Of a DNA stretch of 55,385 nucleotides, positions 4,292-29,816 are shown piece by piece. The position numbers and the translations under genes were made by a program. Below the pieces are notes generated by a model. It was given only the letters and a program-made list of their open reading frames with translations, ran no database searches and was not told the DNA's origin. The DNA is from a virus. Its lineage: Duplodnaviria; Caudoviricetes. Position 1 is the stretch's first letter. Every line of letters begins with the position of its first letter. The DNA is taken from the IMG/VR virus record IMGVR_UViG_3300046804_004030, positions 1 through 55,385 of that record; one strand, given 5' to 3'.

Positions 4292-4541
4292 CTCCCTTCT
4301 CCATGTGTCGCGCAATGCAAAGCAGATCAGGCGCGTAAATACATCCCATTGAGTTTTGGCATTGATTAACTGCTTCGCGTAGCGCTGCGGCAATCATTTC
4401 CTCTTGGGAGACCTCCCTGTTGCGAAAATCCGCCAATTCACAAGCAGCTGTAATAATGGCCTCCGCTTTGCGCTTAATCATTGCTCTTGCGGCGCGTGTT
4501 ACCCAGTCAGTCATTGGATCAGTCATCGGGGAGCGAGTCAA
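4284..4541 (-). CDS. hypothetical protein, AAALR module family
   Basis: IAAALREA...IARHME similar to 30417 and 7312 ORFs. Confidence 0.55.
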   Translation of the reverse strand: MTRSPMTDPMTDWVTRAARAMIKRKAEAIITAACELADFRNREVSQEEMIAAALREAVNQCQNSMGCIYAPDLLCIARHMEKGDG

Positions 4542-4890
4542 TGAGTGCGCGAAGCTTGTTGTAAGCCTCTTGTTTTTCGTGCATGGTCAGATTGTGATAG
4601 ATGCCGGCATCAAGAAGATTGCGGGCCTCGTACTTTGTTGGCAATAATTTTGGTGCAAGAATTGCGCGAAGCTGTTTGACAAGGAAATGCTTGTCTATCA
4701 GTCTCGGATCGCCGGTTGCTGCTCGATCGGAATAGGCTTCCCGTATTAGGTCAAGGCAAGCGTTAAGCATCTGATTGGCGCCCCATTGAGCAGCCTTGAT
4801 CAAGATCAGATCAACACAGTCGCCATTAGTCTTTAGCTCTTGGCACCAGTTATGGATTTTGTCGGGAGGAGGCGTGATTGGATGAGTCAT
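4519..4890 (-). CDS. hypothetical protein, HPITPPP/AAQWGA family
   Basis: MTHPITPPP...AAQWGANQMLNAC...SLPDD; paralogous to 4922..5221. Confidence 0.65.
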   Translation of the reverse strand: MTHPITPPPDKIHNWCQELKTNGDCVDLILIKAAQWGANQMLNACLDLIREAYSDRAATGDPRLIDKHFLVKQLRAILAPKLLPTKYEARNLLDAGIYHNLTMHEKQEAYNKLRALIDSLPDD

Positions 4891-4921
4891 GATTTTGAAT
4901 TAACAGGGATGGTGGCGGTGA

Positions 4922-5221
4922 TTAGTCGCCTGGCAGGGCTTCCAGTGCCTCCTGGATGTCGTCAAAGTCTTCATCGCTGCCGACACCAAGCTTGACGCGA
5001 TCAAGAAGTGCGATAAGCGCACGTTGCTTCAGGCTTGGCTGCCTGCACTTTTTTCGCATCAATCTGGCTGCACCACGGGAGACGTAGAGCGACACGTGCT
5101 CACAGCATCTATCAAGCTGCCAGTCGGCCACCTCCTTGACGACATCTTGGCAGCTGGACGCCTGATGCGACCATTTCTGGATTAGCTGTTCAGGTGGATA
5201 GCTGTTGTTCGATTGAGTCAT
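4922..5221 (-). CDS. hypothetical protein, paralogue of 4519..4890
   Basis: YPPEQLIQKW...ADWQLDRCC...PSLKQRAL...ALPGD. Confidence 0.65.
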   Translation of the reverse strand: MTQSNNSYPPEQLIQKWSHQASSCQDVVKEVADWQLDRCCEHVSLYVSRGAARLMRKKCRQPSLKQRALIALLDRVKLGVGSDEDFDDIQEALEALPGD

Positions 5222-8959: not shown

Positions 8960-9658
8960 TCAATCGGTCAGCGAGTCGCTCAGATGCACAGTCTGACCGT
9001 TGATGTAAGCGTAACGACCCGACGCTTCAGCCAGTGCACCCAACAGGGTGATGTTGGCTTGCTGTTCATTCTGAAGACATTTCCAAGACTTTAACTTCTC
9101 GCCAATGGCGGCAATGGTTGGATTGCCCATGGCCTGCAGGATACGGAGCAATGGGAGTCCCTCGCCAGCGGCCATGCTCGGCACCCTGCCCTCCATGCCG
9201 TGGATGAGGCGCAGCATGAACTGAGCAGAGGGGCGACCGCCTGCCTGAGGCGTGGGGATCGGCTGCGACAGCCGGTCTAGGTCGTTTGGGCAGGCTGCCA
9301 GTGACCACGGGAGGGGTGGCAGGGTGACGGTCACGCCGTCAACCGTACGGCGGCGCACCTTCCTCTCGCGGGGGGCACTGACAGGCAGGCTGAAGCCGAT
9401 ACGCTCAGCCGCTGCGACGACAGCCGGCGACCATTCCAGCGCCACACGGGAGGGTCCAGAGACGACCTTGCCGCCACCCTTGCCACTGGCTGGAATGGTT
9501 TGGTAGTCCATGTCTGCGAAGGGGTCGCCTTCAAGGTCTGAGGGGTCAGCCTGAGGGGTCTGCGCCACGATCGGCGGCTGCTCGGCCGCCTGCTCGGCCG
9601 CCTTGATGATCCGCACCGGACCGGCGGGGGTGGATTGGGAACGCTTGCGAGTTGCCAT
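8960..9658 (-). CDS. hypothetical protein with low-complexity N-terminus
   Basis: 232-aa ORF with CCAACC leader, own promoter-like sequence and terminator. Confidence 0.7.
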   Translation of the reverse strand: MATRKRSQSTPAGPVRIIKAAEQAAEQPPIVAQTPQADPSDLEGDPFADMDYQTIPASGKGGGKVVSGPSRVALEWSPAVVAAAERIGFSLPVSAPRERKVRRRTVDGVTVTLPPLPWSLAACPNDLDRLSQPIPTPQAGGRPSAQFMLRLIHGMEGRVPSMAAGEGLPLLRILQAMGNPTIAAIGEKLKSWKCLQNEQQANITLLGALAEASGRYAYINGQTVHLSDSLTD

Positions 9659-9717
9659 GGTTGGAACTTGTAAAGGGAACGCCGGGGGGAGCCTATGGCT
9701 CCGCCACCGGTTCGCAC

Positions 9718-9745
9718 ACTATACAACCAAACCAGCAGGATGCAA
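9718..9745 (-). promoter_or_regulatory. putative sigma70 promoter
   Basis: Minus strand TTGCAT-N16-TATAGT upstream of 8960..9658. Confidence 0.45.
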
Positions 9746-10162
9746 CGGTCCAAGCGCCCAATACTTTATAGATTCTGCGATCAGTGAACCTATCACCTCA
9801 CCTTAGGCGCAGCCAGTATCGGCAGCGAAGCGGAAACTGTAACTTACCTGCCAGGCAGTAAAGTTAAGCTATCTCCACTGTAGGTTACGCTCGATTGTAA
9901 CTGTAACCTCGCGCAGTGTCACCGCGTTACAGTTACGCTAGCCTGTCAGACTTTATAGGTTAGCCTCTCACCTTAGCCTGTAACGTTGCCGTTGTTAGTT
10001 GTAGTTGTTAGCTTAGGATTGCGGCTCGGATAGTGACACCAACACTTCGCACCTTAGTCTGTAAGTTACCGTGCCAGTCTGGCAGGTTAGCTTGCGTCGC
10101 AAGTTACCTATAGTTTAGTTTAGTTTGCATGTTGCTCGACTTAATTAAGTCCCCAGGATAGG

Positions 10163-10547
10163 TAACATTTAAGATACTTAGCAAGATGCCGCATGTTAGT
10201 TAATCTTACAACTTAGCTAACATTTAAGATGGCAGCTCAGATGTTGCATGTTAGTTAATTCGACAAGTCAGCTAACATTTAAGATATCCAGGAGATCACC
10301 GCTATTTAGTTAATCTGACAAGTTACCTAACATTTAAGATACTGGGCTAATCGTTGCATGTTAGTTAATCTGACAGATTAGGTAGCATTTAAGATTCCCA
10401 GGGAATCGCTGTTAGTTAGTTAATGTGTCAAGTTAGCTAGTGTTTAAGATAGTTAGCTAATCGTTGTATGTTAGTTAATCCTGCAAGTTAATTAGCTATT
10501 AAGATAGTTAGTGAGTCCTTGTTAGTTAGTTAATCGAGCAACTTAGT
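10163..10547. repeat. 7 tandem 55-bp units with invariant TTAAGAT and TTAGTTAAT boxes
   Basis: Unit starts at 10163, 10218, 10273, 10328, 10383, 10438, 10493; exact 55-bp period with no indels. Confidence 0.95.
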
Positions 10548-10611
10548 TAGTGTTCCTGGGCTGGTTAGTTGGCTACTAGCTTGGTTAGCTAACGGTGCTA
10601 GTTAGTTAGCG

Positions 10612-10835
10612 TGAATGCCAGTTAGTCAATGATGAATGTTAGTTAATGATGAATGCAACTTAGTCAGTAGATGAATGGCCTTAGTCAGTGAATGAATGCA
10701 GTTGGTCATGAATGGCAGTTAGTCAGCATGAATGGCGTTTTAGTAAGTGAATGGCTTTTGTAGGTGAATGGCCATTCAAGCAGTTATGAATGGCCTTTGT
10801 TAGTTAGCTATGAATGGCAGTTACTCATGAATGGC
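10612..10835. repeat. about 12 TGAATG(GC) repeats at 16-24 bp spacing, iteron-like
   Basis: TGAATG at 10612, 10633, 10650, 10672, 10693, 10709, 10729, 10748, 10765, 10787, 10811, 10828; many followed by TTAGTCA/TTAGTTA. Confidence 0.9.
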
Positions 10836-11312
10836 AGTCTCGTCCCTGCGGTTCCTATGTAAGTCAAGGTGAATGCAGTTATCAACTGGCTTCTTTTTGT
10901 TTTCTCTGTGAAGCTGCACAGCCTCATCGAAGCACTTAACCAGGAACCCTCGTTTCTTACCAGAGCCACACACCAGGAAGTTAGGGTTAATGATGTGATA
11001 CTTATCTCTTGTTCTGTAGTCAATGAATGGCAGCATTAGTTCTTCCTCCTTGAGGCGTTTAAGTGACAGAACAACGTGATTAGCTTTCTTTTCAATCAAG
11101 TCAGCAACAGCGGCACAGGTAGCTCTGCATCTACCACTGCGCCAGTCAGTCAATGAAATGAACGCAAGTAAGACAGTAATGTCACGATGTTGAATAGCAC
11201 CAGAAGCTGCCAAGTTAACCAACCTAGAAAGCTCAGCAGCGCCAATACGAAAGAAGTTACTTGAGTCATCTTCAAAGCTTTGTTCGTTAGCAGGTGGTGG
11301 ATTGTCAGTCAC
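10821..11312 (-). CDS. winged-HTH protein, RepL-like replication initiator candidate
   Basis: TVLLAFI, TCAAVADLIEKKANHVVLSLKRLKE (HTH), YHIINPNF..CG as in RepL-type proteins. Confidence 0.5.
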   Translation of the reverse strand: MTDNPPPANEQSFEDDSSNFFRIGAAELSRLVNLAASGAIQHRDITVLLAFISLTDWRSGRCRATCAAVADLIEKKANHVVLSLKRLKEEELMLPFIDYRTRDKYHIINPNFLVCGSGKKRGFLVKCFDEAVQLHRENKKKPVDNCIHLDLHRNRRDETAIHE

Positions 11313-11602
11313 CTGGAAGGCCTCCTCAGGTAGGGTGGATTGTTAAGGAACACAACAGCCCAGTCATACCAATGAGTCTCATAGTGCTCATGGGTGAGAC
11401 TGAGTCAATGTAGCCCCTGCTCAGCCTAGTGAGTCACTCAACGTTTTACGCGCCACTCTTATTCTCTTAAATAGTTAACAGACAAACGGCCTGGGGGCCT
11501 CCTTAACGGTGGTCGGGCTGACCTTTCTCAGATTGGTCGTGCAGTCAGTGGGTCAGGGAAGTAGCGAAACGCCTGACCCAGTTACCTATAAACTCTGGCG
11601 CC

Positions 11603-12427
11603 TTAATCAACTTCGGCTTCTTCGATAGCCGCTAGCAGCTGATCCACACCGAGAGCATTGCCCTGTAAGTTTTTACCGACCTCAGCTAGCTTTGCGGCAG
11701 AATTAAGTAGCGAAGGCAAGTCTCTGGTGTCTAGGTCCTGGTCACTATCCAGCATGTTAGTTAGCTTGCGGTTTGCCAAGTAGGCAATACGTGCAGCACT
11801 TAAGCTAAGCTGCTGACCTATCGTTTCCTGTTGCTCACGGTACTCCTCTAGCTTCCTAAGATGGAGCTTATGACGCTCTCCCTCCACCTCAGCCATCCGC
11901 TTGCTAAGCTGGTACCTGTCGAAGTCAGCCGCTCTCTGTAACCAGTTGTTACGTGTTGCGATCTTACGAACCTTATCTAATCCTAAATTTGTAATCTGCG
12001 ATACATATGTTAGTGTACGCCCCCCTCCACACCTAACAAAACAACTGAACAATTCAAATTCTTTGTCAGTCTCAGTTGGTGCAAGGACACTATTTTTAAG
12101 CCAAGTAGCATTAAGGTTAGGGGACCTGTCGGTCTGGTTGGTTAGGTTTTGAGGTTCCGAGAAGGTGTTGCTTTGGTTAACGGCATTTTCTACATAGCTG
12201 GAGGTACTAGTCAGTGAGTGGGTGGGTTCCTGGGGGTCTTGGTCAACTTCTGTAAACTCCTCTTCTACATACTCAATAGTGTCCTCAAGGTTAGTATCCT
12301 CATCATCTTCATACTCACCGAACTCATTTACCTTTCTAAGCCTGCCATCGGCGAACTTGGTGGCGTCCTTTTCAATACGTTCGGCGGAATCCAGTAAGTC
12401 TTCAAAGTCAAAATCTGAAGCCGGCAC
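11603..12427 (-). CDS. terminase small subunit-like HTH protein
   Basis: ETDKEFELF...GGGRTL..VS...VRKIATRNNWLQRAADFD followed by coiled coil, a pattern seen in phage TerS-like proteins; acidic N-terminus. Confidence 0.5.
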   Translation of the reverse strand: MPASDFDFEDLLDSAERIEKDATKFADGRLRKVNEFGEYEDDEDTNLEDTIEYVEEEFTEVDQDPQEPTHSLTSTSSYVENAVNQSNTFSEPQNLTNQTDRSPNLNATWLKNSVLAPTETDKEFELFSCFVRCGGGRTLTYVSQITNLGLDKVRKIATRNNWLQRAADFDRYQLSKRMAEVEGERHKLHLRKLEEYREQQETIGQQLSLSAARIAYLANRKLTNMLDSDQDLDTRDLPSLLNSAAKLAEVGKNLQGNALGVDQLLAAIEEAEVD

Positions 12428-28756: not shown

Positions 28757-29377
28757 TCAGGGGGTGGGGAACGGCAGGGCGTGGGCGGGGAGCCAGTGTG
28801 ACCACTCCATCCACTTGAGAGGCGGACGCGGAAGCAGATCCCATCGCTCTGCGCCGGCATGAAACCACCAGCACTCGCCCTCGTCGCTGCACTCTGCGTC
28901 GTACGGCAGCCGCTCGCTCACCGGGATGGGGGTGATGGCGGGGCGGCCCCAGCGGGCGAGGGCGTCCGCAGCGGCGTGGAATATCCTCGGCGCGTGCCAT
29001 TCGGGCTTGTGGATGATCGTGTCCGGCCCTGGATAGTTGCGGCAGAAATACGCGGTGAAGCTGGCCAGGGCTTCATCCGTCAGCCCCACCGGCTCCGGCT
29101 GGGGCGGCACCAGGATGCTGCGGCCTTCATGCTGAACGACCTGCATCATCGTCGTCTGGTCGCAGGGGATCGGCGTGAACTCCACCGGCTCCGGCTGGGC
29201 CAGGCGCTCCAACAGGTCTGCAACGCGGCTGTACCGGCACTGTTCCTCTGGGTTGTGCTCACCAGCCAGCTCGCGCATGGAGCGCAGCCACTCCACCAGC
29301 TCTGCCACCTCTCCCTCGGCGGCCGGGCCCGGCTGGGCTAGGGAATTGTTCGTGTTAAATGGTTGGTTGTTAGACAT
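28757..29377 (-). CDS. modular hypothetical protein with ARWGRPAI/HWLP module (DUF551-like)
   Basis: ARWGRPAITPIPVSERLP...ECWWF...SHWLPAHALP. Confidence 0.7.
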   Translation of the reverse strand: MSNNQPFNTNNSLAQPGPAAEGEVAELVEWLRSMRELAGEHNPEEQCRYSRVADLLERLAQPEPVEFTPIPCDQTTMMQVVQHEGRSILVPPQPEPVGLTDEALASFTAYFCRNYPGPDTIIHKPEWHAPRIFHAAADALARWGRPAITPIPVSERLPYDAECSDEGECWWFHAGAERWDLLPRPPLKWMEWSHWLPAHALPFPTP

Positions 29378-29816
29378 GAGCGATAAGAGATGGGTGGGCA
29401 AATTGGTCTTGAAGTTCAAGGGCAGCTTTTGCGTAGGCCGCTGCAGCTTCTTCTGGTGTAGCAAAAGTCCCCAAAAGCCTATTGCGTCCATTGCGATCTT
29501 GGATCTGCGCACGCCACTTGCCATAGTGGGGTGAAACACCTTTCAATCCGCACTTGTTAGTGACAAGGACAGGGCGGTTGTACTGATTCTGAGTCCTGGT
29601 AGCCAATCGCAAGTTTTTTATCCTGTCGTCATTCTTGATTCCGTTAATGTGGTCTACTTCCATTTCTCCGGGCTCGCCATTGAAGAAACACCAGACAATG
29701 CGATGCCTCTTGTAACTGGCCCCGTTGACCCTGATTCCGTGGTAGCCGTTTTGCTGTAGCCAGCCGGCGGGCTTGTTCAGGTCGATTTGGCTGTTATGGC
29801 GACGTTTCCAAAACAA
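29370..29816 (-). CDS. HNH endonuclease with AP2-like domain (homing endonuclease type), start uncertain
   Basis: HRIVW, VDHINGIKNDDRIKNLR, NQYN, KGVS...WRAQI...LGTFATPEEAAAAY. Confidence 0.88.
   Translation of the reverse strand: MFWKRRHNSQIDLNKPAGWLQQNGYHGIRVNGASYKRHRIVWCFFNGEPGEMEVDHINGIKNDDRIKNLRLATRTQNQYNRPVLVTNKCGLKGVSPHYGKWRAQIQDRNGRNRLLGTFATPEEAAAAYAKAALELQDQFAHPSLIAHV

Follow-up and report, generated by a model that had tools for sequence, protein, structure and literature searches.

A multi-tier field of directional repeats downstream of the small terminase gene in uncultured freshwater siphoviruses: a candidate packaging-initiation region

Tandem centromeres such as F sopC are built from fixed-length units, every one with a short conserved binding motif, and in both F sopC and TubR/tubC such units lie beside the gene of a small DNA-binding protein. 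TIGR-Tas arrays have a Nop-domain effector encoded next to them and are transcribed into guide units. To our knowledge, no pac site has the form of a multi-tier field of about 0.9 kb. In SPP1, the small terminase subunit (TerS) binds repeated pacL and pacR boxes adjoining its own gene (PMC6316719). [quoted passage not shown] Other papers state that TerS rings present many HTH motifs (PMC4737164), that P22 pac comprises 22 bp (quoted in PMC11447400) and that 11–19 bp can suffice for TerS binding (PMC11417361).

The window analysed here (the whole stretch of 55,385 bp) is a linear IMG/VR virus record with an estimated completeness of 56%. Between about 45 and 2 kb its genes lie on the minus strand and include those of a DnaB helicase, a recombinase, an exonuclease, a methyltransferase and a dNMP kinase; a sigma factor gene is found at 47.5–48.4 kb and the tail and virion genes at 51–55 kb. 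The only tRNA gene detected in the window by a tRNA scan was tRNA-Arg(TCT) at 2117–2190. Two neighbouring paralogous small genes (phrog_32006) lie beside an endonuclease gene (phrog_452) at 4519–5221, and an HNH-AP2 homing-endonuclease-like ORF was identified by eye at 29370–29816 on the minus strand. The 55-bp array that drew attention to this virus is contained in an ORF-free gap of 1.16 kb (9659–10820) with a G+C content of 0.40 as against about 0.50 for the genome and a GC skew of +0.17, and it is one tier of a larger repeat field that occupies this gap.

As an earlier sequence-only reading of this DNA had claimed, the array consists of seven head-to-tail units of exactly 55 bp (10163–10547, minus strand, the first unit starting at 10163), which read approximately ATCTTAAATGTTAGCTAACTTGTCAGATTAACTAACATG plus a diverged tail on the gene strand, and its two boxes, TTAAGAT (unit positions 7–13) and TTAGTTAAT (34–42), are identical in all seven. 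TRF reported the period of 55 together with a higher-order period of 110, and the most alike pairs are units 4 with 6 and 3 with 5. Invariant columns make up 23 of the 55, with longest runs of 9 and 7, a combination that had a frequency of 2 × 10−5 in 100,000 column shuffles. With up to one mismatch allowed, TTAGTTAAT is matched 18 times in the window, where 6.8 matches would be expected (0 of 100 shuffles reached 18); 13 of the 18 are within 10196–10647; the array boxes form clusters nowhere else in the window, and the site is single-copy and directional. Comparison in register revealed a degenerate eighth unit (10548–10602, minus strand, with a transition between tiers extending to 10611) that grades into the neighbouring TGAATG array.

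The other elements of that reading fared unevenly. The seven 16-nt windows have the sequences that it quoted, but they are not unrelated to one another: their pairwise identity is 47.6% (0.476 against a shuffle null of 0.251, with a maximum of 0.354 in 5000 shuffles), and they represent divergent versions of a single sequence and not spacers. The junction dyad ATGTTAGTTAA-N9-TTAGCTAACAT is complementary at 10 of 11 positions at the first junction but decays further along the array (10, 9, 7, 8, 6, 7 and 5 of 11). The palindrome said to cap the array, GACTTAATTAAGTC, is indeed present at 10138–10151 and perfect over 14 bp; five perfect palindromes of this length occur in the window (shuffle mean 3.8). 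It is followed, up to 10166, by CCCAGGATAGGTAAC, which reads GTTACCTATCCTGGG on the gene strand. Both halves of the proposed inverted bracket stand where they had been placed, but they make a weak bracket, as unit 5 contains a further CCCAGG (10397); CCCAGG and CCTGGG are found 14 and 18 times in the window.

The proximal tier of the field (10612–10875) comprises 14 copies of TGAATG(G/C) on the plus strand, that is, of CATTCA on the gene strand, which are spaced by about 17–21 bp, are interleaved with TTAGTCA and overlap the last codons of the gene of a winged-helix (wHTH) protein. The gap holds 40 of the 199 plus-strand TTAG tetranucleotides of the window, also mostly 17–21 bp apart. Read on the gene strand, the order is the wHTH stop codon, the CATTCA array, the 55-bp units, the palindrome, a few conserved single motifs and a promoter-like site. 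One of the single motifs, GGATAGTGA at 10029–10037 (TCACTATCC on the gene strand), is common to several relatives, being present in two copies in locus L099 and located distal to the arrays in L109, L110 and L116; in the last three loci the CTATCC part of GTTACCTATCCTGGG also recurs, past the last copy of the box-1 core described below. The promoter-like site (9894–9936, minus strand) is a sigma-70-like consensus match, GTGACA-17-TACAAT, with 10 of 12 positions, on which a perfect inverted repeat of 11 bp, GTAACTGTAAC-N18-GTTACAGTTAC, is superimposed; the two are candidates for the promoter and operator of the genes that follow the field, and the number of promoter-like sites in the region (3) should be read against 3.4 expected in shuffles. 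By-eye readings of the 55-bp unit itself as sigma-28-like or sigma-70-like found no support in the promoter scan. The gap contains a second perfect 14-bp palindrome, TGAATGGCCATTCA (10765–10778), which is the only spot where the proximal repeat reverses orientation and which scores as a terminator-like hairpin on the plus strand (10770–10795).

Upstream of the field on the gene strand lie two conserved genes. The terS-like gene (11603–12427, minus strand) codes for a protein of 274 aa matching phrog_6299, terminase small subunit (E 1.3e-11), with an acidic N-terminal extension, a conserved HTH and a helical C-terminal half. In tblastn it matched, with 22–27% identity, the annotated terS of the cyanosiphoviruses PSS2, S-CBS2, S-CRES1 and CL131; it has 178 relatives at E<=0.001, and PF10668 is matched by 4 of 34 members of the family. 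Directly downstream of terS, the wHTH gene (10821–11312, minus strand) encodes 163 aa, modelled by AF2 with a mean pLDDT of 76.9 as a wHTH followed by a C-terminal helix. Its best Foldseek matches are MepR/MarR proteins (E 5e-4, with a TM of only 0.30–0.40). Complex prediction for the C-terminal half of TerS with the wHTH protein gave a score of 0.00, which makes no call either way. A homologue 28% identical to the wHTH protein is encoded in the T7-like Synechococcus podovirus S-SRP02 (L103, 3989–4363), where it follows an 880-bp non-coding gap just upstream of maturase B and where tandem arrays are absent.

The sequence-only reading had named the genes on both sides of the array as candidate partners. 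That at 10821–11312 is the conserved wHTH gene beside the field and is retained as a putative partner, but the one at 8960–9658 (orf232, minus strand) is unique to the window and is no partner: it is a G+C-rich strain-specific cargo gene outside the conserved cassette, has no tblastn match among 47 related loci and is lacking in three of the four other populations compared. The G+C content reaches 0.60 in its region (9001–10000). Contigs of populations X3, X5 and X7, from other studies, diverge to the left of about 9830, and in the complete relative G002 a G+C-rich ORF (0.61) comes directly after the arrays. The distal edge of the field looks like a hot spot of cargo insertion.

A profile search with TerS retrieved 45 viral loci, 36 of them distinct, and the same cassette recurs in them: terS, the wHTH gene, the CATTCA array and further arrays, usually 2–5 kb upstream of the large terminase gene terL. 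By HMM, the wHTH gene follows terS in 29 of the 45; the remaining loci shown have a divergent wHTH-like ORF in the same position, bar one incomplete contig. All 44 loci with downstream sequence carry 5–25 sense copies of CATTCA within 2 kb after terS, as against 0–3 antisense copies. Upstream of terS there is no tandem array in 31 of 36 sources and a single weak one in each of the other five. The TerS proteins of the 36 distinct relatives are only 42–60% identical. In many members the first CATTCA repeat encodes the C-terminus of the wHTH protein, which ends in ..LHS, ..IHS or ..IHE. The metagenome loci L099 and L100, with wHTH proteins 70% and 53% identical to that of the window, show terS, the wHTH gene, the TGAATG array and runs of CAGTTAGT, and both contigs stop within the repeats. 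No relative was found in 72,556 plasmids or in genome contigs, megablast of 9000–12000 against phages returned no match, and searches of viral contigs with each of three flanking proteins and with profile A1 yielded no locus; profile A1 against PDB sequences gave nothing below E 0.1.

Beyond the CATTCA tier the arrays vary by lineage. Two or more sense copies of the box-1 core (gene strand: TAAATGTTA) are found in the distal arrays of 16 of the 44 relatives, and four in the window, with only three copies elsewhere across all loci. The earlier question of whether boxes and period persist while the windows turn over can be answered yes for the box-1 core and the linkers, but the period changes, since the TAAATGTTA units of the relatives are 21, 48, 49 and 54 bp long. 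The 49-bp arrays of L140, L138 and L143 share the two-box plan of the window, and the second box is kept in relatives only as a TTAA core. Full TTAAGAT-N20-TTAGTTAAT patterns occurred in 97 stretches of viral contigs and are regarded as chance matches, because no stretch among the 80 listed matched more than once. In six loci (L114, L104, L117, L139, L145 and L148) a further conserved repeat type, C-rich with an A3-T7 run (e.g., CCCACCACCAAATTTTTTTCCCAATTTCAAC) recurs about 2.3–3.7 kb after terS and may represent promoters.

Natural populations, compared across 24 runs that were all kept as assembled DNA contigs, differ by whole units; the comparison gave no site at which many molecules start or stop, something that contigs are unable to reveal. 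The X3 and X5 contigs, from two other studies, have a clean deletion of 55 bp, from 10250 to 10306, by which one unit is lost; nine letters at its joint fit either side, the outcome predicted for an exchange within the repeated TTAGTTAAT box. Contigs of two further studies contain rearranged units with other linkers between the same boxes. The inference of selection on spacing, drawn earlier from the lack of indels, therefore holds within one array but fails across relatives and in view of whole-unit deletion. In the X3 population the terS–wHTH intergenic stretch (11475–11661) and part of the acidic extension (12179–12223) are swapped for unrelated sequence; its arrays are still at least 95% alike despite this replacement. 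The ends of contigs cluster near terS and in the arrays. Their interpretation as physical termini was set aside, and they are read as assembly breaks driven by repeats and microdiversity, given that repeats are lacking upstream of terS and that the contigs break at scattered points.

The large terminase gene lies within the downstream flank in 34 of the 45 loci, starting 2.2–4.9 kb past the end of terS in the 21 loci for which this distance was taken, among the first 25 of 61 entries; in all five long relatives it shares the strand of terS and lies downstream of it. In G002 (complete, 98 kb) the order is terS, the wHTH gene, the arrays, two ORFs, terL, a portal-sized ORF and structural genes; the cumulative GC-skew minimum and divergent promoters of this genome are 18 kb from the cassette. 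In G001, G003 and G004 terL is about 14–28 kb away, and the window has none, either as a whole or in the 11.6 kb downstream of its terS. In the cultured phages PSS2, S-CBS2 and S-CRES1 terS abuts terL, with neither the wHTH gene nor the arrays. The terL genes of the relatives were located with Pfam PF03237 and with a relative's own TerL; tblastn with PSS2 TerL detected none near terS because that protein is too divergent.

A scan for three CCATTCA copies picked out 120 contigs, of which 33 carry a different clade of terL, with 25% identity to the first. In these 33, HMM searches detected neither a terS nor a wHTH homologue, and hhalign of their flanking ORFs against the terS and wHTH profiles indicated no relation. 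In 38 of the 39 loci with terL the array is 1.1–7.5 kb upstream of it on the same strand. The other 78 have neither terL nor the terS/wHTH pair; among the examples examined, long ORFs enclose some of the arrays, and several of the contigs belong to giant-virus bins. In the second lineage (33 of L161–L280; e.g., L191, 4640–4957) the CCATTCA repeats are followed by GTAC-rich repeats, then by a DUF7227 protein (PF23872, E 7e-73) and a phrog_2 large terminase. Homologues of the HNH-AP2 endonuclease-like ORF of the window, found near the arrays of some second-lineage contigs, were considered as a shared binder and rejected; they are mobile genes.

The anatomy of the field, the conservation of its position, orientation and boxes across a phage family and its whole-unit polymorphism are direct observations. 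Of the three models offered by the sequence-only reading, that of phased protein-binding sites (for origin, packaging or partition) gains support from a family-conserved field beside conserved terS and wHTH genes, and the array is best supported as a conserved, directional set of putative protein-binding sites. We tentatively favour, at somewhat less than even confidence, the view that the field, over about 0.9 kb, is a packaging-initiation (pac-type) nucleoprotein recognition region; it is ranked first because of the linkage to terS and terL in two lineages. The 55-bp array would then be the distal tier of a directional direct-repeat field heading a packaging module in which terS, the wHTH gene and the repeat field are followed by optional cargo genes and then by terL and the portal gene. 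The small terminase ring and/or the winged-helix protein may coat the repeats in one orientation, recognising CATTCA in the proximal tier and ATCTTAAATGTTA and ATTAACTAA, the reverse complements of the TTAAGAT and TTAGTTAAT boxes, in the distal one. The resulting large nucleoprotein complex would mark the DNA of the field and give the large terminase its direction. Contacts would be made at the invariant boxes, and the 16-nt and 13-nt stretches would be linkers drifting by point mutation, with unequal crossing-over between box copies gaining or losing whole units. Which protein binds which tier, any cleavage of the DNA and the packaging role itself are what we infer.

Several lines of evidence argue for this packaging reading: the conserved cassette, with the field directly downstream of terS and the wHTH gene in all 44 relatives that have sequence there, the linkage to terL, the second lineage, the conservation of TAAATGTTA, the single-copy directional site, the wHTH homologue of S-SRP02, which lies just upstream of the large terminase in an unrelated podovirus, and the precedents of the SPP1 pac boxes and of TerS rings with their many HTH motifs. 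Against it, characterised pac sites are far smaller than this field, the closest families of the wHTH protein appear to be of replication-initiator types, and terL is distant in the window's own lineage. Moreover, a TerS of the cyanosiphovirus kind needs no such field, since in PSS2, S-CBS2 and S-CRES1 its gene abuts terL.

The second explanation is a replication origin of Rep-like wHTH and iteron type or an initiator-bound fork-arrest site as at SPP1 oriR, which we consider possible but rather unlikely and rank below packaging and above transcriptional control. According to it, the wHTH protein would be a small Rep-like origin binder, the CATTCA repeats starting from its stop codon would be iterons, unwinding or accessory functions would fall to the A+T-rich distal arrays, the 55-bp units among them, and the module would have been inserted together with cargo genes between terS and terL. 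The weak Pfam matches of 33 wHTH members are led by RepL (10) and HTH_36 (6), followed by MarR_2 (5) and Phage_rep_O (2), and the nearest protein-atlas clusters are RepL, HTH_36 and MarR_2 at a score of 0.96; every one of the Pfam matches, however, is below the curated cut-offs (best RepL E 0.0028, HTH_36 E 3.7e-5). The tandem direct repeats adjoin the wHTH gene, the first of them overlapping its last codons in many members, and the putative identity of the protein as an initiator comes from these sub-threshold matches. The lowered G+C content of the field and the very A+T-rich distal arrays of the relatives would also suit an origin, as would the precedent of SPP1 oriR among late genes (PMC6316719) and the lack of the cassette between terS and terL of the cultured relatives, as expected of an inserted module. 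On the other hand, CCATTCA arrays stand upstream of terL in the second lineage, in which no wHTH protein is detectable, and about 30 kb separate the field from the genes for DnaB helicase and recombination. Cumulative GC skew reaches its minimum at the divergent region (45–46 kb in the window, 40–41 kb in G002) and not at the field, a position confounded by gene orientation, and none of the 19 DnaA-box-like matches of the window is in the gap.

Both functions might also be combined. That a single non-coding region couples replication, through an origin or fork arrest, to the initiation of packaging, within a cassette that runs from terS through a Rep-like wHTH gene and an iteron field of several tiers to terL, is a doubtful proposal, and we are equally hesitant to suggest that, so understood, the cassette is a previously undescribed one widespread in freshwater phages; no description of it was found in the literature searched. 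Under this coupling, the presence of CCATTCA in two terminase clades without homologous small genes would imply a common, possibly host-encoded reader.

A transcriptional control region at an early/late boundary, acting as an enhancer, roadblock or titration site through which the wHTH protein or the phage sigma factor governs read-through or activation towards terL, is less probable still. The field does separate a long run of small early-type genes from the block of terL and structural genes, the promoter-like site with its overlapping perfect inverted repeat lies just distal to the field, the wHTH fold matches MarR-type regulators and the phage encodes a sigma factor. But 14 plus at least 7 sites are far above the numbers in known operators, the motifs form one cluster and are absent from the other promoters of the window, and the promoter-like sites do not exceed expectation, with one weak plus-strand match inside the array. 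Whole-unit change of copy number in natural populations would suit a partition centromere (sopC/parC/tubC-like) of a plasmid prophage with the wHTH protein binding it, but this is highly improbable: no ParA, ParM or TubZ-type NTPase was recognised in the 40 window proteins scanned, the window being only about 56% of the genome, and the plasmids and genome contigs searched hold no relative.

We give as little credence to a processed guide-like RNA array (CRISPR/TIGR-like) or a neutral decaying minisatellite, in spite of the regular units combining conserved and variable parts and the frequent contig breaks, as at hypervariable loci: the windows are homologous, the gene-sense strand has no consensus RNA fold, the opposite strand forms only a weak hairpin (−4.5 kcal/mol) with 0 compensatory pairs, Rfam has 0 matches in the window, and neutrality is contradicted by the family-wide conservation of boxes, order and orientation. 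In place of near-identical CRISPR repeats of 21–48 bp separated by unrelated spacers there are invariant runs of only 9 and 7 nt, and the 10 neighbouring proteins scanned gave no Pfam family; among the neighbours scanned there is neither a Cas nor a Nop-domain protein, as had been noted before. The recombinase-like 11-9-11 sites that formed the remaining model likewise find no support, given the fall of arm complementarity from 10/11 to 5/11, the zero compensatory pairs and no recombinase in the 10 neighbouring proteins.

With the tempting CRISPR/TIGR-like reading of the array removed, terS, the wHTH gene, the CATTCA array and the further arrays stand as a conserved and easily recognised cis-acting landmark of abundant uncultured freshwater siphoviruses that are apparently related to cyanophages. 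If the field is the start of packaging or replication, it would offer a handle for the orientation of genomes, for the prediction of transduction and, once the host is cultured, for packaging or shuttle vectors. Its layered architecture, in which a universal repeat is joined by lineage-specific higher-order units, is a natural example of the evolution of iteron arrays, with boxes fixed, linkers drifting and whole units gained and lost.

Among the systems with which the locus may be compared, CRISPR and TIGR arrays are only superficially alike in alternating conserved and variable segments at a fixed period; here the boxes are of 7 and 9 nt, the segments between them derive from a single sequence by divergence, and neither a covarying repeat hairpin nor, among the neighbours scanned, an effector gene accompanies them. 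The sopC-type centromeres differ in that the invariant boxes of our array are direct and not dyad-symmetric, the context is that of a terminase and no NTPase was found in the window proteins scanned. The likeness to iteron origins is closer: as in SPP1 oriL/oriR with gp38, direct repeats are contiguous with the wHTH gene and are followed by A+T-rich sequence, and the lambda ori within O has a comparable iteron layout (PMC11447400). Unlike these origins, the cassette has no adjacent gene of a helicase loader or helicase, its wHTH proteins are only 120–190 aa long with a weak match to initiator families, its copy numbers are far higher, and its proximal repeat is shared with a lineage lacking the wHTH gene. 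In PLE, the satellite of a Vibrio phage, one intergenic region holds both Rep iterons and a packaging signal (PMC11417361, PMC8263062), which offers a precedent for a combined ori and pac region (PMC11417361); PLE is, however, a satellite and not a full phage, has no sequence relation to our locus, and has a pac core of 14 bp within 89 bp. With respect to SPP1 pac (pacL-pacC-pacR), the field is about three times longer, has at least three tiers of different repeats with 7–25 copies per tier, and lies downstream of terS with the wHTH gene between. Yet the two have in common (PMC6316719) repeated boxes beside terS, in a stretch that is non-coding or at the edge of a gene, a place at the head of the packaging operon, and a single-copy, directional site.
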